From: Escherichia phage T4
DNA length: 64,000 nt
Reading direction: 5' to 3' (one strand)
Sequence record: OL964745.1
Shown: positions 260 to 62,052 of the stretch, piece by piece
How the letters are laid out: each line of letters starts with the position of its first letter
Position numbering within the stretch: the stretch's first letter is position 1
The notes under the pieces: model-generated
Told to the model about the DNA's origin: nothing
The model's input: only the letters and a program-made list of their open reading frames with translations
Database searches by the model: none
Translations under genes and position numbers: made by a program

Positions 260-791
260 TACTGGCTCATCCATTCTTTACGAAGGTCAGCATTATCTCC
301 CATGAGCATTTCAAAAAGCTCTTTCCAGTTCTCAGGAAGTTTAACAACATCATATACTGGGTTTTGAATCATCTCACGATATTCAGATTTTTCCAAAGAG
401 CCAAGTCCCTTAATATAACGGATGCTATGTTTAGGTAGAGCATCTTTGGCACTCTCATATTCAGCGACTGTATAAAACCATTCTTGTTTTTTACCGACCT
501 GAGCGATGATTACAGGAGTTTTGACAAAGCGAATTCGTCCTTGCTCAAACAATTCTGGCCAATTACTAAAAAATCCGAGCAGAGAAGGATAAATAGAACC
601 TAATCCAATAATCTCTTAATTATGAGGTATTTCTATAGATAGCCCGAAGGCTATCCATCGTGATCTGCGTCTGTCATAATAGCGACATTCGCATAGTTCA
701 TTGAAGAGGATTTAATAGAACGACGAACATTGTTCTGCAATTTATATTTTTTCATATCAACGCTAGAAGAATCAATTTTTACAAATTTCAT
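259..791 (-). CDS. 60: DNA topoisomerase II medium subunit gp60; two coding segments (654..791 and 259..603) joined by ribosomal bypass
   Basis: N-terminal 46 codons MKFVKIDSS...MTDADHDG end at GGA followed by UAG; coding resumes LGSIYPSLLGFFSNWPELFEQGRIRFVKTP...KGLGSLEKSEY. 46+114 = 160 codons. Confidence 0.92.
604..656 (-). promoter_or_regulatory. gene 60 translational bypass (hop) element
   Basis: Minus strand: take-off GGA (654-656), UAG (651-653), hairpin CCUUCGGG..., 47-nt gap, landing GGA (604-606), resume codon UUA (601-603). Confidence 0.88.
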
Positions 792-1590
792 TATACACCT
801 CATAGAACTTTTCATCAGGAATCCAACCGCGTTTAAATTCATTAAATGCTCGGCCGAATAATTTTGAATTCACAGTTATATTATTAACTGATTTCCATTT
901 AGCAACTCCCGTTCGTTTATAATGATCGGGGTCATATTTCGTGACGTACCATTCATATAAATTTGGTATTAATTTTACAGCCTCTGGATTTGTCGCTGAT
1001 TTATTATACCATGGTTTCGCTTTTTCAAGTTCAGCTGCTTTTGCAGTAGCAGCAACAGTATTTCCAATACCAACTAATTTTTCAGTTTTAATGCGTGGAT
1101 CATTAACATGAAGACGAAAAACTTCGCCCTTTTCATTTTTAAAGCATGTCATGCCTTTAATTCCAGGAAGCTTAACACCTTTATTAACACCGCACCATTC
1201 CTTTGGGTTAAATGATCCTTTAATTAATAAGGCGCATTTACCCGATTTAATACTTCTCATTAAAACTTTATCTTTCATAAAGTTTTTTGACCATTCAGAT
1301 ACTGCTCTTTGATGGTAAATTCTAGCAATTTCATATAATTTACTAGAACGTAAATATTTTTCAGTGTTTAACATTCTATTCATCGCATATGCCATTTCAC
1401 GATTACGATGAATTTTATATAGTAGAAAATGTGCTAAAAAGTGTTCACGAAAAGTCAGTTTCACCAAATTTTCTTTATCATCAGAACCTCCCATTGATCT
1501 TGGAAGGATATGATGAATTTCACCCTTAAATTTAGAAACGCGGGTTTTACCCCGCACTATTAAGTCATTATAGATTTTTTCGTAATTCAC
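772..1590 (-). CDS. mobA: HNH homing endonuclease, MobA-like, inserted between genes 39 and 60
   Basis: HNH motif EIHHILPRSMGGSDDKENLVKLTFREHFLAH; lies between the two topoisomerase genes. True start may be downstream of the first in-frame start. Confidence 0.7.
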   Translation of the reverse strand: MNYEKIYNDLIVRGKTRVSKFKGEIHHILPRSMGGSDDKENLVKLTFREHFLAHFLLYKIHRNREMAYAMNRMLNTEKYLRSSKLYEIARIYHQRAVSEWSKNFMKDKVLMRSIKSGKCALLIKGSFNPKEWCGVNKGVKLPGIKGMTCFKNEKGEVFRLHVNDPRIKTEKLVGIGNTVAATAKAAELEKAKPWYNKSATNPEAVKLIPNLYEWYVTKYDPDHYKRTGVAKWKSVNNITVNSKLFGRAFNEFKRGWIPDEKFYEVYNEICKN

Positions 1591-3446: not shown

Positions 3447-3454
3447 AATTACCC

Positions 3455-3625
3455 TTTAAGCAAGTCGTAAAATCCACCATTCACATGCTTAGGAGCGGAA
3501 ACTAACCGAACAGCCAGCCGATGACAATCAGGACATACATCAGTATCTCTTTCAGAAATTTTCTTGATTTTTTCGTATTCTTTTGCACAGTCTTTGGATT
3601 GACATTTATAATCATAAAGCGGCAT
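3455..3625 (-). CDS. small zinc-ribbon protein (about 56 aa)
   Basis: Hand translation MPLYDYKCQSKDCAKEYEKIKKISERDTDVCPDCHRLAVRL...; two CxxC pairs; below the ORF-track size cut-off. Confidence 0.45.
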
Positions 3626-3627
3626 AA

Positions 3628-4053
3628 TTATTCCTTAAAGTAAGCTTTCAACATCTGATATAAAGACCACGCCTGATCATTATTTTCAATAGTAACTTTC
3701 ATGACTGGGAATTCTGTGAAATCTTCTATTTGTTCTTGCTCTTTCTCTTCCTGCTCTTGCTCTTCAACCGCCTGATATGGATTTTCCACTTCATCAAAGA
3801 ACCCAGCTTCGTTAGTAGAGAGCCAGATAAAGTTTTCGTCAAGGATATCACCGCCGGCACAACGTTTGAGTACACCTATGGATGTCATAATTTTAGTAGG
3901 ACGCCCAAGATAATCAGCATCTAAAATTTTAAAAGGCTCCATACCTAAACGTCGTGCATAGATTCCGTTATCAGTATGGTCTTTAATAAAATTTTCTTGA
4001 GCTTGTTTATTTTTAAATTGATACCATTTATTAACTTCAAATTTAATAGCCAT
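3628..4053 (-). CDS. hypothetical early protein (141 aa, acidic C-terminal region)
   Basis: ORF track; tight packing with neighbours on the coding strand. Confidence 0.45.
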
Positions 4054-5430: not shown

Positions 5431-5543
5431 AATTTTCTCTTTAGTTTAAGGTAATAAAGCCTTTTAGTTCGGCATAGGATTTTATTATCCTCAGTAGCTA
5501 TGGTGTTATAGTACCACAACTAACCGAGGAAGTAAACAACTTT

Positions 5544-12914: not shown

Positions 12915-13505
12915 TTATACATCTTCTTTTCTGAATAAGTAAATTAAATTCTTAAGAGCCGAACTTGTTACATCATATTTTCCTTTAAGCGCCTTTACAA
13001 CCGGGCCTGTTGCTGGTTTACCTAAAGAAACCCATAACTCGTGTATTTCGCTTTTAAGTGGTTCATGCCAATGCGGTGCTTTTCTTTGCGCCCTTGAAGT
13101 TCCTTCTGAAATCTTTTTATTTCCGCCATTCGAATAAAACTTTTTCATTACTTCAGATTGCCGAGCTTTTCTTTCTGCCCTATTTTGGGCTATACGTTGT
13201 GAATTCTTCATCCGAGTTTTTGTTTCAGGATTGTTTAATCTAAGTTTATGTTCTAATCGTTGTTGCTCAGTCCATTTTCTTCCTTCTCCACCCTGACCAC
13301 CAGGAGAAATATTAATGCAAGTATCTGGGTGTTTACGTTTTAATGCAGATTAGCTCACGTTCAACTTCATATGATTTTTCTCTAGAACCATGGCATTTTG
13401 ACCATCGTATTTTATAATTATCCATACTTACGATATATGTTCCATAGTATTTTACCTGAACCCGGATATTTATCATTATATGGATTTACAATAAATGATT
13501 CATGT
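12915..13505 (-). pseudogene. segF: segF-like homing endonuclease remnant in at least three frames
   Basis: Fragments ..YPGSGKILWNIYRKYG*, MDNYKIRWSKCHGSREKSYEVERELICIKT*, and a 144-codon C-terminal frame with ISPGGQGGEGRKWTEQQRLEHK; resemble SegA/SegB. No intact GIY-YIG N-terminus. Confidence 0.45.
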
Positions 13506-13514
13506 TTCCCAGCG

Positions 13515-13540
13515 TACCAAAAGACGCCTTTCGGCGTCCT
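13515..13540 (-). terminator. hairpin terminator after gene 56
   Basis: Minus RNA GACGCC-GAAA-GGCGUC followed by UUUUGG. Confidence 0.55.
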
Positions 13541-13572
13541 AACTTTTACTATATGTTCTATAAAATTTTTGT

Positions 13573-14123: not shown

Positions 14124-14920
<797 letters not shown>

Positions 14921-24310: not shown

Positions 24311-24385
24311 ATCCGTATCAGTAGTTGATAGTTGTATAGTACCATGGAAGAACAGTCTTGTAAACAGTTTTGTGAAAAAATTTTT
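24305..24385 (-). repeat. conserved early promoter plus 5' leader element
   Basis: About 80-bp element also at 49601..49675, 60773..60862, 4347..4440, 48166..48225, 63647..63715; minus-strand core GTTTAC...GGTACTATACAACTATCAACTA...GGAG. Confidence 0.55.
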
Positions 24386-24447
24386 AGGGAATCCAAAGGG
24401 TCCAGAATCATCTCTTTTTCATAAGTATAGATTTATATTACTTGTAT

Positions 24448-33889: not shown

Positions 33890-33912
33890 AAGCTAAAGGG
33901 CCGAAGCCCTTT
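33890..33912 (-). terminator. UUCG hairpin after alpha-gt
   Basis: Minus RNA GGGC-UUCG-GCCC followed by a U-containing tract. Confidence 0.45.
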
Positions 33913-35110
33913 ATTTTGTAATAATGTCAAACTGTTCTTTAAAGCAGAAGCTTGAATCTTGATGCTGATACAAAAATTCATATGCTTTTTCTCGCTCACG
34001 GTCATAAAGAGCTCGGTCAGATGACAGTTCTTTAATACGTTCAAATGTTGATTCCATATCATTTTCATCAAACCAAATGATACCGCTATCATGCGAGGTC
34101 AAAGGAGTATTATCAACACGGAATTTTAAATTTTCGCCAGTAGATTTCCAAAATACCGGAATTGTTCCACATGCACCAAGCTCGAGATGAGTATATTCGA
34201 GTGAGCGTTGTAAGTATTTCTGGTTAAGTTTACTCAACTGATATCCAAAGCCAGATTTACTCATTCGTTCAAGCATTTCACTATTAATATAACAATCTAG
34301 GATTTGTGCCGGTTGATTCGGCGCGAGATTCATTTTATCAATCTCACGATTACCGTAATATTCATACGGAATACCTTTTTCCTTAATTGCAATAAAAGCA
34401 GGGGAACGTTCCAGACCTTCCATTACAGTGGATTTACCAGCAGGTTTTAAGAATTTTTCATGAAAATCAAACATCTGGTAAAAACCTTTCCATGTAGTCG
34501 TACGACCAATCCAACGGTTGATATTCATGTTAATTTCAGAAACATCTTTCCAATAAGTTGACCGAACCTTCACAATATCCATAGGAGGCTGAAAATTATA
34601 TACTGTCGGTGCTTCTTCAATATCATCAAACAGAGAAACAGTTTCTGGATACCATTCTTTCATCAGAACTTTATTAAAATCACCATTATCAGAATGGCTA
34701 AAAATAACATCAGCTCGACGAACAGTTTCTTCTAATCCCAAATTTCGACGCAAAGAAAGAACAGAATGATCATGCTGATAAACTACAACACGAATAGAAG
34801 GTTTAATATTATCTAAAAGTTTTTTATAGTTAATCGTAGCTTCTTGAACGGAAGTAGCAGGAACAGAATTAATAATTAGAATATCACAATCATTTACTAG
34901 CTTAAGTGCTTTATCGTATTCTTTAGCTAAAATAACTGGAATTGAAAATGATTTGTGGTCATGAGAACTTGTACGAGTAAATGATTTATCTTTAGCATAA
35001 ACCAAAGTTACTTCATGACCATTTTTAATAAACCAATCACGTTGCTCGAGTGAGAATTTTGTTACACCACAACCTTCAAGACCTCGAGCCATAAAAATGC
35101 AAATACGCAT
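33911..35110 (-). CDS. agt: DNA alpha-glucosyltransferase
   Basis: 399-aa ORF beginning MRICIFMARGLEGCGVTKF. Confidence 0.9.
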   Translation of the reverse strand: MRICIFMARGLEGCGVTKFSLEQRDWFIKNGHEVTLVYAKDKSFTRTSSHDHKSFSIPVILAKEYDKALKLVNDCDILIINSVPATSVQEATINYKKLLDNIKPSIRVVVYQHDHSVLSLRRNLGLEETVRRADVIFSHSDNGDFNKVLMKEWYPETVSLFDDIEEAPTVYNFQPPMDIVKVRSTYWKDVSEINMNINRWIGRTTTWKGFYQMFDFHEKFLKPAGKSTVMEGLERSPAFIAIKEKGIPYEYYGNREIDKMNLAPNQPAQILDCYINSEMLERMSKSGFGYQLSKLNQKYLQRSLEYTHLELGACGTIPVFWKSTGENLKFRVDNTPLTSHDSGIIWFDENDMESTFERIKELSSDRALYDREREKAYEFLYQHQDSSFCFKEQFDIITK

Positions 35111-35158
35111 AGTTTTCCTCTTTTCATTTAATAAATCATGTAAATAATATTTTATTTT

Positions 35159-35940
35159 CTATAAAACGCTACGAATAGGCCCAAACATATCCATAAGCAA
35201 TTTTGCTTTTTCCAGATTGCACTTTTTAATATTAGACATGCATCCTTTAACGGATACAGCTGCGTCTTTAATTCTAGGAAATACTCGTAATAATTTTCCA
35301 GTAGTATCATATTGAAATACTGGCACATTTCTTTTCTGAGTTATCCCACGTAGATTTAGACATTTTTTGTTTAGTTGCATTAGACATCCTAGAGGGCTTT
35401 CCTATGTTATCAGAATAATATTTCCATTGAAATCCTCCAGCGGTTTTCCTTTTACCATCTACACATTGTTTAATTGAAGTTGAACAGCTATGACATATCT
35501 TCTGCAGCATCTGTAATACATCTATATTTGCGAATAAAATTTCCATTTAAATCATATTGATAAATTGGTTTTCCAGCATTTCGTCTAGCGTTAGACATGT
35601 ATTTATTATCATCTTTCCAGAACTCTTTCATGCTTTCCGATATTGAAGAAGATACAGCTGTTTTAATCCATCCATACATTATTATTTAGTCTTGTTCCGT
35701 CAGAACTATAACATCATACGAATAGCTAAAGCCAATTTAGGAAGTCTATAAATTTTAAATAATAAATGCGCGGTAAAATGTTCTTCTGGTGTCAAAAGAA
35801 CTAAATTAGTTTTATCATCTGTACCACCCATACATCTAGGAATTATATGATGTGTTTCAGTATAGTATGTCAAAAGACTTTTATCATTGCCTCTGTTTAG
35901 TCCTTTTTCGATCAGTAAATTATATGTTTAAATAATTCAT
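35159..35940 (-). pseudogene. mobB: HNH homing endonuclease remnant with tandem DNA-binding repeats (mobB-like)
   Basis: ATG at 35940 (MNYLNI*), then HNH motif TETHHIIPRCMGGTDDKTNLVLLTPEEHFTAHLL in another frame; three track ORFs carry repeats PIYQYDLNGNFIRKYRCITDAAEDM and PVFQYDTTGKLLRVFPRIKDAAV. Confidence 0.5.
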
Positions 35941-35967
35941 TTTAGTTTATTTTACCAAAAAATTTAT

Positions 35968-35992
35968 AAAGCAATAGGAGCCGAAGCTCCTA
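35968..35992 (-). terminator. UUCG hairpin
   Basis: Minus RNA GGAGC-UUCG-GCUCC. Confidence 0.4.
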
Positions 35993-36181
35993 TCCACATA
36001 ATACGCCATACAGAGGCTCGTTAGAACTTTTAAATTTTATGCGCTTATATGTTATAGTTCCTTCTGCTTTAGCTTTATCATGAGCCTCTTTAAAGCGTCT
36101 CATCATTTCCTCTCTAGAGGAACGAATTTTATTATAATCTATTTCAGAAGTCGGATGTTCATCTTTCACAGTTGCCACCAT
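35990..36181 (-). CDS. hypothetical protein (63 aa)
   Basis: ORF track. Confidence 0.4.
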   Translation of the reverse strand: MVATVKDEHPTSEIDYNKIRSSREEMMRRFKEAHDKAKAEGTITYKRIKFKSSNEPLYGVLCG

Positions 36182-37716: not shown

Positions 37717-38043
37717 TTATACCTTAGTAATTTTCAGGTCTGCAAATTTTTTCTTGCGTTGATTTTTCATGCGACGAATAGTTTTATCGGAAATTTCATG
37801 CTTTTGATAAGCTTTAGATTCTACACCAAAAGCTTTAACATCAAATTCTGACAAGATATATTGAACCAACAATTCACGGACAGTATTGCGTCCAATCTTC
37901 TGATCATTCTGTTTCATCGTTTGATGAAGCTCTTTTTCCCATTTATCCAAAATTTGAGGAGTTACAATATCGCCTTTTTCTAGCAAAGAAACTACTTTAT
38001 CATATGCGTAAGAATTGATGGCGTTTTTAATTTGAATAGTCAT
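37717..38043 (-). CDS. hypothetical protein (108 aa)
   Basis: ORF track. Confidence 0.4.
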   Translation of the reverse strand: MTIQIKNAINSYAYDKVVSLLEKGDIVTPQILDKWEKELHQTMKQNDQKIGRNTVRELLVQYILSEFDVKAFGVESKAYQKHEISDKTIRRMKNQRKKKFADLKITKV

Positions 38044-38095
38044 ACATTATCCTCAATTACGTTAAAATTTTATTATCCAAAAAGGGCCGAAGCCC

Positions 38096-38296
38096 TTAGC
38101 TAAACTTTTTGGCACCCTTCCAGCCTTCGTACATCATTGCGACTGACAATGACAAAGCTCCTTCACATGCTGCATACTTATTATTCCAGAACCAATTTAG
38201 AAAAACTTCATCCTCAATACCGTTGTGTTTCATGTTCTGGAAAAATTTGGCGCGTTCTTCAGCAATTCGCTGCGATAATTTAGATTCAGGATTCAT
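38096..38296 (-). CDS. hypothetical protein (66 aa)
   Basis: ORF track. Confidence 0.4.
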   Translation of the reverse strand: MNPESKLSQRIAEERAKFFQNMKHNGIEDEVFLNWFWNNKYAACEGALSLSVAMMYEGWKGAKKFS

Positions 38297-38512
38297 TTAA
38301 ATTTCCCAATTGCCATTTTCATCAATAAATTTAATCCAGTCATTTACTGACCACTTGGTCGTATCGCCTTTTGGAGTAACATTTAAAGTGTATAGCCCTT
38401 GCTTAAAAAGCATGCGTTTGATATTCATATTTTCCTCAGCTGTAACGATAACACTCGTTTGATTTACGTTTAGCAACTCGTTGAGAAGTATTATAATCAA
38501 AATCATCATCAA
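38297..38512 (-). CDS. hypothetical protein (71 aa; start probably internal)
   Basis: ORF track. Confidence 0.4.
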   Translation of the reverse strand: MMMILIIILLNELLNVNQTSVIVTAEENMNIKRMLFKQGLYTLNVTPKGDTTKWSVNDWIKFIDENGNWEI

Positions 38513-38774
38513 TGTAAACTGATTTTTTCAACTTTCTTACTTCACCGCGTAATTGACGATTTAACTCATCTTTAACTTCTGAATCAATACCTTTCATTCT
38601 ACGCCATTTATCTGAGCGAAAAATGTTTTCAACCATATCTTTATGACTTACCCCATCAGGAGCTTTACGCTTTCCGAAATAGTCATAATCACGCACTTTT
38701 AAGTCTTTACGACGATACGTTTTACCCATGGAGTTTAATTTCCTTAGCAACTGAACTAAATACAGCACGATCAC
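38436..38774 (-). CDS. hypothetical basic protein (112 aa; start probably internal)
   Basis: ORF track. Confidence 0.4.
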   Translation of the reverse strand: MIVLYLVQLLRKLNSMGKTYRRKDLKVRDYDYFGKRKAPDGVSHKDMVENIFRSDKWRRMKGIDSEVKDELNRQLRGEVRKLKKSVYIDDDFDYNTSQRVAKRKSNECYRYS

Positions 38775-40055: not shown

Positions 40056-40822
40056 CCCCGTTTATATGAAACAATGTAATTTGGATAATTGTCATCTAAA
40101 CACAAATCTTTAATACGACTTGGGTGGAGTTTTAAATCTTTAGCAGCATCCACAAATGATTTATAGATATTGTCATTTATTTTAACATATTCTGGGACGG
40201 GATGAATTGTTATTTTTATATCTATAACATTTGGATGATTACTAACCTGTTCTTCAGAGCATTTAAGAAATTTTGCAGCTGATTTAAAACTTCTAAATTT
40301 ATTTCCGGATTTTAAAGCTATAGAAACAGTCTTTTTAGCCGTTCTACTACCAATATTATTTTTAACATGAGCTTCACTTCTACTATTATTTTTATAATGC
40401 TCAATCAATTTCTCTCGTATCTTATCTTTATGTTTTAAAGATAAGATTTTACCTTTATGGGCATTACTAAGTTTTTGCTTATGTTCTTCTGAATCCGGAT
40501 ATTTGTTAAATTTATATCCACCTATAGATTTATTAAGAATAAATTCGTTATTAAAATATTTCCTAATAAGCATTTCTTCATGTTTAAGGGCCGATTCATA
40601 AGAATCAAAAACTTGAAGAATTATCCACTTAGCTTTATAATCTTTAAGCTTTTCTTTAACAAGCTTAGATGACGAATTGTATTCTTTCCAATTTGTATCT
40701 TTACCATATATAGTTTTGAATTTTTTAAAACCTATATAAAAAGACTTATCAGGAAATCTTACCATATAGGTAAATGCTACAGAATTGGCAATTTTTAAGC
40801 TTTTTCTTAATTTCCATTTCAT
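40025..40822 (-). CDS. GIY-YIG intron endonuclease, I-TevII-like, with altered C-terminal tail
   Basis: 265-aa ORF (FTYMVRFPDKSFYIG plus NUMOD-like repeats) just 3' of a group I intron core; last ~10 codons run across the junction into nrdG sequence. Confidence 0.75.
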   Translation of the reverse strand: MKWKLRKSLKIANSVAFTYMVRFPDKSFYIGFKKFKTIYGKDTNWKEYNSSSKLVKEKLKDYKAKWIILQVFDSYESALKHEEMLIRKYFNNEFILNKSIGGYKFNKYPDSEEHKQKLSNAHKGKILSLKHKDKIREKLIEHYKNNSRSEAHVKNNIGSRTAKKTVSIALKSGNKFRSFKSAAKFLKCSEEQVSNHPNVIDIKITIHPVPEYVKINDNIYKSFVDAAKDLKLHPSRIKDLCLDDNYPNYIVSYKRGMLVTDSYSL

Positions 40823-44499: not shown

Positions 44500-44900
44500 T
44501 TCACGAAGGCTAATTACGAGTTTATATCCTTCCCAACCGCATATTCTTAAAAGGATATGTATGAATTTCTACTGTTTCCATACAAAGTAATGCGGTCTCT
44601 AATTGACGAGTTAGTGCTAGCAATTGAGAAAAATTTATTAATATTCTTTTGGTTAGTTTCTGGTGTAAAAAATCCATAATTCACAAATAGATACTTTATT
44701 TTTATCAAGTTCATATTCTTTTATGATAATCATATCAGAAGCCAAAGGATGAATTTGACGATAATCGCCAACATAATTTAGAAGCTGATTTTAGAATTTG
44801 CTTCTTGAAAAGTCTGAAATTACTAATCCAACGACGAGTAAAAATATTCTCAGGGTCTTCTTTATTATTGAGATGATAAGAATTAACATCACCGAACCAA

Positions 44901-45155
44901 TTATCCTACTACATCTTTAGTTCGTTTAATTTCTTTCCCAAAATTACCAAGAATATCCCGATTAACCAAATATGAAAGAAGACGAGACTCTTTAAAGGTT
45001 TTCTTGATAACATCTTTATCTACACGGCTAGAAATTTTACGAATTTCATGAATAAATTTAGTAGAAGAAACAATACTTGCATCAACACTATTGAGCCACT
45101 GATTGATAATAGAAAGAACGCTATTTTGGCCAAACATCGGTATAGCTATCATCAA
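44901..45155 (-). CDS. hypothetical protein (84 aa)
   Basis: ORF track. Confidence 0.35.
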   Translation of the reverse strand: MMIAIPMFGQNSVLSIINQWLNSVDASIVSSTKFIHEIRKISSRVDKDVIKKTFKESRLLSYLVNRDILGNFGKEIKRTKDVVG

Positions 45156-45221
45156 TAACGCTATTGAATGATTTGATATTCGTTACGAGTCATATTAATC
45201 TCCTCAGTAGAAAGTAAGAAC

Positions 45222-52962: not shown

Positions 52963-53154
52963 CTACATGCTGTTTACGACCTTTCTTATCAATAAAGGTA
53001 TATTCAACGAATGTTCCAATGTAGTCTTATCTACATCATGTGGACTATTAATTGGACATTTAGTGCGACAAATGCGTTCCCATTGACGAATAATTACTGC
53101 CTTATTCTTTGGGTCATATGGATGTGGATAATGTATATTCATAATAGTTCCCAA
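52963..53154 (-). CDS. hypothetical protein (63 aa)
   Basis: ORF track. Confidence 0.35.
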   Translation of the reverse strand: MGTIMNIHYPHPYDPKNKAVIIRQWERICRTKCPINSPHDVDKTTLEHSLNIPLLIRKVVNSM

Positions 53155-53571
53155 TCAACAATCACAATTTCTAATTTAGAGGAATATGTATCTAAAATCC
53201 CCTCAATAATATCCCAGTTCCCTTTACCTATGCCTGCACCAATCCTAGGCATATAGATTGTAGGTTTAATCAGTTTATTTTCACCAAACTCATTTAATTC
53301 TAACATACAATTCATTAAAGCGGAATACTCAATTTGGCCCTGGTTGAAATTGAGTATAAAGATTGAAGCAGTAAGCTTTATGAGTCCTAAAGTATTTTTC
53401 ATAGACTGAGTAAGAACCGAGTTTAGTTACATCACCCCATTCAGTCTGTAATTTATCAGCTTCCAAAATTTTAGGGAAAGCTTTGGTTAATTGACCCGCT
53501 ACGCCTGAACCCATAGTATGAAAACAATTATCCATGTGCAATATTTTTACCTTCAGCGAAAAGGGCGACAA
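53139..53571 (-). pseudogene. macro-domain-like protein split into two overlapping frames
   Basis: 53329..53571 carries HTMGSGVAGQLTKAFP; 53139..53402 carries IYMPRIGAGIGKGNWDIIEGIL; 74-nt overlap in different frames. Confidence 0.4.
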
Positions 53572-53593
53572 TATCGCCCTTGATATTTTACAA

Positions 53594-56656: not shown

Positions 56657-57620
<964 letters not shown>

Positions 57621-60502: not shown

Positions 60503-60829
60503 TTATTTCATATTATTGAAATATTCTTCTGCGATTTCGTCGTTATCATGGTAAACTTTAGAAGACAGTTTAACATAACTTTCAGCAGTGAACATGTTAA
60601 TCACAACCTTTACAGTATACCACTGACCGTCTTCATTACCCATTACTGCGTAAGTTTCAAACATCGGATGGTCAGGACCGATAACTTTAATATCATTCAC
60701 CGTACGACCGAAATCTTCTGAAACACATTTCATAAAGAAGTTGAAAAGTTCACCGTAATTATCCATTTTATTCTCCAAGTTATTTTCTGTATCAGTAGTT
60801 GATAGTTGTATAGTACCATGGAAGAACAA
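60503..60829 (-). CDS. hypothetical protein (108 aa)
   Basis: ORF track. Confidence 0.4.
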   Translation of the reverse strand: MFFHGTIQLSTTDTENNLENKMDNYGELFNFFMKCVSEDFGRTVNDIKVIGPDHPMFETYAVMGNEDGQWYTVKVVINMFTAESYVKLSSKVYHDNDEIAEEYFNNMK

Positions 60830-61039
60830 GGATGTAAACAGTTTTGTGAAAAAATTTTTAAAAAGTTTTAGGGAATTCTAGGGCGGAGAGGGGCAATTAA
60901 AAGATAGGATAATATATTATAAAGGGTATAAACTAAATGATGCCTAGAGAGGTCTGGAAAGGCTTAGATACCAAAAAGCCCCAACCTTTCGGTCGGGGCT
61001 AAGCCTTGCGGCAACCTTGTCGGGGTTCCACCTGCCAAG

Positions 61040-61389: not shown

Positions 61390-61711
61390 GTAATTTAAAA
61401 TTTCATTTTTCGACCTTTAAACCATCCTTCTGGAATTGGGTCAGTTTTCTTAATACGTTTAGAAACTTTTTCATCTAATGAATGAATCCACATCATACCG
61501 AATTGGGAATTCTTTTCACCTTTCTGGTGATTATTTTTGGCGTGAGATTCTTTCATTTTATTAATAGTTTCAGGAGTATGATGCTTATTTAGATCTGCTA
61601 TTATTTAAAAATTTTTCCCTGTATTCAGGAGTTGACCACAAACGTTTAAATACATTTGAACCAATTTTACGATATTTTTCTTGAAGTAAAATATCATTTT
61701 CAAAACGTGAC

Positions 61712-62052
61712 TTAAACGATAGCTCCTTTTAAGCTAGCATCTTTCTTCTGGTTTAGCATTCCAGGAATATTTACATGATCCCATCCACCTTCACCGCCAA
61801 GTTTTAAATTATACACATCTGGTCTATTTAAAAACTCTTCTGTGACAATATTTTTCTCGGCTTCAAGCATAGATTCTTTATCGTCAAAATACTCTAATAT
61901 TTCTTTAGAAAAATTTTCTATACCATATTTATCTTGGGCTCTTTTTAATAATTTACCAGAACCCATATCCATCATCTAAATTTTCGGTAGAATGCACACC
62001 AATATAAATTTTATTATTAATTTTATTTGTTATTTTATAAGTGTAATAGAAC
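61712..62052 (-). pseudogene. segB: GIY-YIG homing endonuclease SegB-like, frameshifted, inside the tRNA cluster
   Basis: MFYYTYKITNKINNKIYIGVHSTENLDDGY then out of frame into MGSGKLLKRAQDKYG...YNLKLGGEGG (track ORF 61712..61975); TATATG reads TATG at about 61964-61967. Confidence 0.7.

Follow-up and report, generated by a model that had tools for sequence, protein, structure and literature searches.

The sequence at 35159-35940 on the minus strand of the window (the whole 64,000-nt stretch of Escherichia phage T4, record OL964745.1, that was analysed) is identified, by comparison with database sequences, as mobB, the already known free-standing homing endonuclease gene of phage T4. This copy of the gene is predicted to be dead: it is divided into seven pieces over three reading frames, and the piece that encodes the HNH motif has no ATG start. 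The breakage is very probably a recent laboratory product of CRISPR/Cas9 iterative genome reduction (CiPGr), with the window derived from a sibling clone of the mutant T4_583L. Neither the gene nor its laboratory lineage is new, and the window mobB is not a novel element; its fragmentation is no evidence for natural decay or recoding of homing endonucleases in T4-like phages, but the scar of a published genome-reduction experiment.

The wild-type T4 records and those of RB55 and RB59 contain one intact mobB orf of 264 aa each. In NC_000866, mobB is located at 37885-38679 (795-nt CDS, NP_049674.1) between a-gt and a-gt.2, and a 795-nt mobB CDS is annotated in MT984581 too. According to Pfam, the intact protein has an N-terminal HNH (His-Me finger) domain at residues 24-50, a NUMOD1 module at residues 129-166 and a second NUMOD1 near the C-terminus (two stretches, E=1.2e-26), as well as an I-HmuI_NUMOD-like match (E=3e-7). 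The two NUMOD1 repeats, each of ~55 aa, have 40% identity to each other (E=2e-14), and a weak NUMOD3-like linker is found at residues 191-206. MobB also matches a homing endonuclease family of PHROGs (E=4.5e-53), and no PDB sequence matches it at E<=0.01. Its combination of HNH with NUMOD-type modules is shared with the characterised nicking HNH homing endonucleases I-HmuI, MobA and MobE (for the family, see PMC2988022), by analogy to which wild-type MobB would nick its target close to where the gene inserts, and recombinational repair would then copy the gene into the target. Unlike them, MobB has no detectable sequence match to solved structures, and the window copy is predicted to be non-functional.

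The window copy has the locus, the neighbours, the architecture (HNH and two NUMOD1 modules) and the non-gap sequence of T4 mobB, but ten gaps shorten it by 23 nt in total and leave it without a continuous orf. Comparison with mobB of T4 and the RB phages, which the first-pass annotation of the window had proposed, was carried out on a 901-nt stretch, which is 97.3% identical to T4 mobB with gaps as the sole differences, a similarity far beyond chance. Among phage records, megablast found full-length matches to this stretch in 25: the records of wild-type T4, T4T, RB55 and RB59 are each 97.3% identical over 926 nt, and a single record, MZ375356.1, reaches 99.4%. The neighbours a-gt and a-gt.2 are the same as in T4. 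The earlier placement of the gene between alpha-gt and gene 55 is therefore correct with regard to a-gt on one side, whereas the immediate upstream neighbour is a-gt.2 and gene 55 is four small orfs beyond.

A profile search for HNH and NUMOD domains, likewise proposed beforehand, detected both on the fragments. HNH (PF01844) was found at 35706-35873 with a score of 24.5 bits (cutoff 21.4, E=3e-5), and NUMOD1 on the orfs 35488-35679 (E=5.7e-10) and 35159-35380 (E=4.7e-11). The middle orf, 35307-35546, gave weak I-HmuI_NUMOD-like and NUMOD3 signals (the latter with E=0.06); it contains the C-terminal half of the first NUMOD1, severed by a 2-bp deletion, and the NUMOD3-like linker. These three overlapping orfs do carry the DNA-binding part of the protein, as previously noted, but what had been described as a ~25-aa repeat in each of them is in fact two ~55-aa NUMOD1 repeats and the NUMOD3-like linker. 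Identity to T4 mobB together with the Pfam matches upholds the first-pass description of a mobB-like HNH homing endonuclease with NUMOD modules. Identity and synteny, the HNH domain and the C-terminal NUMOD are all found in the window copy, and a single orf is not; on sequence grounds it is a pseudogene of the Mob-type HNH family rather than a functional member.

In a three-way alignment, the window copy differs from wild type by ten deletions of 1-3 bp within the CDS (1, 2, 3, 2, 3, 3, 2, 2, 3 and 2 bp), with a net loss of 23 nt and zero substitutions. Six of the deletions (1-2 bp) shift the frame and the other four are in-frame deletions of 3 bp. The ATG at 35940 does lead to a stop after MNYLNI, as was first observed from the letters alone, and the HNH motif HHIIPRCMGGTDDKTNLVLLTPEEHFTAHLL is indeed in a second frame, with homology extending from 35924 to 35715, a stop at 35706-35708 and a Pfam HNH score above the cutoff. 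The earlier suggestion of a multiply frameshifted gene is likewise accurate, and the enzyme cannot be encoded. The pseudogene, its fragments, its lesions and the neighbouring genes are as follows.

35159..35940, minus strand: mobB pseudogene, the wild-type 795-nt, 264-aa orf minus 23 nt, in three frames
35923..35940, minus strand: fragment 1, MobB residues 1-6 (MNYLNI), followed by a stop made by a 2-bp deletion
35715..35924, minus strand: fragment 2, MobB residues 7-77 with the HNH motif, without its own ATG; one Leu codon is gone (3-bp deletion, 35758)
35681..35713, minus strand: fragment 3, MobB residues 79-89 (CYSSDGTRLNN), in the third frame
35491..35679, minus strand: fragment 4, MobB residues 91-155, N-terminal part of the first NUMOD1; 6 nt lost in frame (DDDNKK to DDNK)
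35352..35486, minus strand: fragment 5, MobB residues ~158-205, C-terminal half of the first NUMOD1 and NUMOD3-like linker; one Tyr codon is gone
35219..35350, minus strand: fragment 6, MobB residues ~206-248, second NUMOD1
35172..35216, minus strand: fragment 7, the C-terminal 15 residues of MobB (SGKSKIAYGYVWAYS), followed by the original stop codon
35218: 1-bp deletion (A) where Cas9 is predicted to cut, 3 bp from a CCA PAM; also in T4_583L
35351: 2-bp deletion (TT) where cutting is predicted for a CCN PAM; also in T4_583L
35414: in-frame 3-bp deletion, one unit of (AAT)3; also in T4_583L
35489: 2-bp deletion in TATAT, with no NGG PAM within 25 nt; also in T4_583L
35605..35608: two adjacent 3-bp deletions (TTT and ATC), outside any NGG protospacer; TTT is private to the window clone
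35679: 2-bp deletion (TT); also in T4_583L
35711: 2-bp deletion (AC of ACAC); also in T4_583L
35758: in-frame 3-bp deletion, one unit of (AAT)3; also in T4_583L
35921: 2-bp deletion in TATATAT, the first frameshift, after codon 6; also in T4_583L
35974: 2-bp deletion (ATATA) that has the a-gt.2 hairpin on one side and TGCTTTA (MotA-box-like) on the other, 34 nt upstream of the mobB start codon; also in T4_583L
33911..35110, minus strand: a-gt (alpha-glucosyltransferase), downstream neighbour, intact except for an in-frame 3-bp deletion at 34830
35990..36181, minus strand: a-gt.2, upstream neighbour, 63 aa, unchanged

The deletion in a-gt removes TTA and leaves a product of 399 aa as opposed to 400 aa; in T4_583L, a-gt is annotated as shorter still (1182 nt). 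The hairpin GGAGCTTCGGCTCC, located at 35977-35990, overlaps the stop codon of a-gt.2. When 35050-36100 was scanned for promoter and terminator consensus sequences, matches were no commoner than in shuffled sequence.

The best match, MZ375356.1, is the record of 'Mutant Escherichia phage T4 clone T4_583L', a CiPGr clone (Yuan et al. 2022, PMC9825161). In CiPGr, the E. coli host contained SpCas9 and a plasmid library, with about eight spacers per non-essential gene and 50-bp homology arms designed to delete either 100 bp or a whole gene, and T4 underwent up to about 600 passages (PMC9825161). Nine of the 11 mobB lesions of the window (ten in the CDS and one upstream) are identical in T4_583L. 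The two records also have a common start at rIIA.1 (reference position 2200), 106 differences from NC_000866 in common, and identical junctions of the motB.2 and nrdC.3 deletions, which are consistent with designed 'cassette-gene' CiPGr edits. The losses of nrdG-nrdD, nrdC.11-mobD and vs.3-vs.8 in the window match undesigned 'large fragments' listed in the CiPGr paper (PMC9825161). Since the lineage lesions, the record start and the designed deletions are shared with T4_583L, the window can be attributed to the CiPGr serial-passage experiment; and since mobB is intact in all wild-type records, the fragmentation is not ancestral. Together these comparisons show that the mobB lesions were gained in the laboratory during CiPGr.

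The two clones are not identical. Their mobB remnants are 99.4% alike and small A/T deletions of one class occur in both across the region compared, but T4_583L has a TA deletion in a TATAT tract of mobB that is absent from the window, and the TTT deletion at 35605 is private to the window. In total, 16 lesions are private to the window and 49 to T4_583L. The whole-gene losses at 5479-5482 (motB.2, 461 bp) and 44154/44155 (nrdC.3, 905 bp) of the window are clean.

For an overview of small deletions in the window, modern wild-type T4 (MT984581.1) was chosen as the comparison genome, against which many of the differences from NC_000866 vanish, being errors of the old reference. The 64-kb window has 71 differences from MT984581.1: deletions of two bp (47), three bp (13), four bp (3) and one bp (3), 1 insertion and 4 substitutions. 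Deletions of 2-4-bp A/T microrepeat units constitute 63 of the 71, and the deleted units are nearly all A/T. Repeat context of at least 1 nt accompanies 44 of 46 two-bp deletions, compared to 36% of control sites, and a search for flanking motifs around the lesions found nothing but the microrepeat itself. Relative to wild type, the lesions of the window are confined to dispensable genes and their immediate flanks. The gene with the most lesions is mobB (10), followed by nrdC.4 (8), tk.4 and nudE (4 each), and segF, segB, dam, rI.1 and nrdC.1 (3 each). The multi-lesion genes include the following.

44541-45176: nrdC.4
53147-53583: tk.4
57234-57569: nudE
13349-13550: segF
61593-61965: segB
14701-14919: dam

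Among 2-bp A/T microrepeat tracts comparable to the mutated ones, 16 of 229 are mutated in nine multi-lesion dispensable genes and none of 480 in the strictly essential genes (16.5 kb). Alternating A/T tracts of at least 5 nt have lesions in 13 of 36 cases within lesioned genes versus 0 of 129 within lesion-free genes; in intergenic regions 5 of 22 such tracts are mutated, all of them adjoining lesioned genes. No in-frame 3-bp deletion is found in essential genes, where about 6 would be expected before selection, an underpowered comparison. In the late-gene region of T4_583L, the same class of lesion is present only in segC, segD, segE, hoc and uvsY.-1. The fate of mobB is shared by segF and segB in the window and by segA, segC, segD and segE in T4_583L.

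Several dispensable genes of the window have no lesions (mobA, e.2-e.8 and a-gt.2-a-gt.5), and segA is also clear. The uneven spread of lesions among dispensable genes (10 in mobB and 8 in nrdC.4, versus 0 in mobA) is not fully explained by relaxed selection. The lesion-free mobA, which is equally dispensable, is largely unannotated in NC_000866 and therefore was probably not targeted by CiPGr spacers. The balance leans towards a local process near targeted genes over a genome-wide one.

The three large-fragment losses raise a question about the reliability of the record. The deletions of nrdG-mobC-nrdD (at 40057), nrdC.11-mobD-mobD.1 (49827/49828) and vs.3-vs.8 (54996/54997) in the window are exactly 2046 bp each, with 0-1 nt of junction homology, whereas their counterparts in T4_583L, with which they share left breakpoints, are 3328, 2688 and 2608 bp and have junction homologies of 17, 10 and 4 nt. 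Because three lengths are equal and the breakpoints are sensible only for longer deletions, the figure of 2046 bp suggests that deletion lengths were capped by the software behind the sequence and does not look like biology, and about 2.5 kb of the window may be absent from the real phage. The lesions of mobB are unaffected by this problem and are corroborated by the second GenBank record.

Homing endonuclease genes undergo a cycle of gain, decay and loss, which would favour the decay considered in the first-pass annotation, here taken to be that of a selfish gene, once fixed, in a wild T4-like phage. Even for the wild type, Edgell, Gibb and Belfort (2010, PMC2988022), who tabulated MobB as a free-standing HNH enzyme, gave its activity as 'ND'. 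Such natural pseudogenisation is nevertheless very improbable: wild-type T4, RB55 and RB59 and the distant carriers fPS-2, G8 and 215Ecol030PP match at full length (about 924-926 nt) with endonuclease CDSs annotated, the changes in mobB are exclusively deletions with zero substitutions, and the lesions recur in a documented laboratory mutant. The intact wild-type carriers, and the lesions and 106 differences held in common with T4_583L, effectively refute it. The fragmentation would be ancestral if reference T4 had it too, but there, as in every other wild-type record, mobB is a single unbroken orf of 795 nt. A sequencing, assembly or consensus artefact that conceals an intact mobB would account for the odd mutational spectrum, and the three 2046-bp deletions, in resembling a software length cap, point to an error-prone pipeline. 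This too is highly improbable, given that technical error is blind to essentiality and the essential genes are spared despite their 480 equivalent tracts, that a record deposited separately repeats nine of the 11 mobB lesions while each clone has private ones, and that the CiPGr authors saw such deletions in population reads (PMC9825161). The distribution of the lesions, their sharing by two deposited clones and the read-level report therefore identify them as real mutations and not sequencing noise, and a pure artefact is rejected. Least credible of all, to the point of being negligible, is programmed recoding (frameshifting or bypass) that yields a functional MobB, for which the annotated translational bypass of T4 gene 60 is a precedent: the ribosome would have to change frame six separate times, the first frame stops after six codons, and wild-type mobB is a plain orf, so that no recoding signals are conserved. 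Recoding was rejected on the absence of the frame breaks from all wild-type records.

The origin of the lesions in the CiPGr experiment being preferred, it may be asked whether every small deletion is a CRISPR escape mutation that destroyed one of the roughly eight SpCas9 targets per gene. The CiPGr authors suggested this for 'some' of them (PMC9825161). In mobB, six lesion loci alter an NGG protospacer, and those at 35218 and 35351 are exactly at the predicted cut position. At about seven sites outside mobB, and none within it, the window and T4_583L each have a small deletion of their own, a few bp apart and mostly PAM-proximal to CCN. Sites with different alleles are found at the following positions.

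4916: motB
11951: mrh
43819: nrdC.1
44685: nrdC.4
53027: tk.3
53147: tk.3/tk.4

These look like products of site-specific selection. In most cases a CCN/NGG PAM is 1-12 nt away, which makes these sites the likeliest to represent genuine CRISPR escape. As a general explanation, escape is unlikely. In tests that scored the lesions against every possible NGG site, the distance of lesions to a Cas9 cut site showed no overall association; 64.5% of deletions are inside an NGG protospacer or PAM, compared to 64.6% of matched A/T sites, with 22 of 62 outside all of them; and a histogram of protospacer coordinates for the 112 distinct deletions of the two clones had no enriched coordinate. In mobB, 31 of the 39 NGG protospacers are still perfect, three lesions in the CDS and the TATAT lesion private to T4_583L touch no NGG protospacer, and the lesion sites in the CDS, when the two clones are united, number 11 versus eight spacers designed per gene. 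PAM or seed substitutions are almost absent, there being only 4 substitutions in 64 kb. Since there is no overall positional link to NGG protospacers, the escape idea of the CiPGr authors covers only part of the lesions. Published escape mutants of T4 resemble the window in that deletions arose under SpCas9 pressure and were joined at short homologies (Tao et al. 2018, PMC5812732; Wu et al. 2021, PMC8262927), but they consist either of base substitutions in a PAM or protospacer or of larger deletions across the cut, between minihomologies of 3-4 nt, whereas most lesions of the window are 2-3 bp and have no relation to NGG PAMs.

A mixture is most likely, in which a minority of the lesions are escape events and the majority are slippage-type losses of microrepeats in DNA free of selection; the cause of individual lesions is inferential. 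Dispensable mobB would have been kept through hundreds of transfers, during which it gathered small deletions. The loss of short microrepeat units, mostly A/T, would be the signature of slippage or misalignment; the minority exactly at predicted Cas9 cut sites may be CRISPR-escape events, and the majority most likely result from a mutational process that favours deletions, in sequence on which selection has ceased to act. A more speculative proposal, to which some weight but well short of an even chance is given, is that the 2-4-bp A/T deletions come from an uncharacterised mutational process that is confined to particular loci, operates in T4 when Cas9 attack is chronic, and is neither classical PAM/seed escape nor ordinary replication error. 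Candidates for such a process may be slippage in repeated recombinational repair or at Cas9-stalled replication forks in targeted genes.

The persistence of mobB in a phage that was being stripped of dispensable genes may have to do with its neighbour. Within mobB there is a promoter that serves the gene downstream (Edgell et al. 2010, PMC2988022), and removal of the whole of mobB would be disfavoured because loss of this promoter would damage the expression of a-gt. With whole-gene loss disfavoured, the body of the gene would therefore have persisted and collected small deletions. The embedded promoter is a plausible cause of the persistence of mobB.

The small-deletion signature (losses of 2-3-bp microrepeats in certain dispensable genes, with no overall relation to PAMs) is the sole point of wider interest in this pseudogene. 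If the signature is that of break- or roadblock-induced mutagenesis, CRISPR pressure would reshape phage genomes beyond simple escape mutations.

Some other features of the two clones were noted. The mobA gene of the window (772-1590, minus strand) is an intact HNH orf of 272 aa that starts with GTG, and the same holds for modern T4 records; in the old reference, NC_000866, about ten errors of one base each at positions 3450-3667 are responsible for the 'defective 114-nt mobA'. A sequence of ~75 bp occurs twice in the window with 93% identity, at 24312-24386 (between imm.1 and gene 43) and at 60786-60860 (e.8-rnaC region), and showed up as cross-matches in the BLAST comparison against T4. In T4_583L (MZ375356.1), hoc has an internal deletion of ~570 bp and a 2-bp deletion (92716-93108), and a 20-bp sequence (TGTTATTGGA) is tandemly duplicated (x2) between uvsY and gene 25, around wild-type position 115356.
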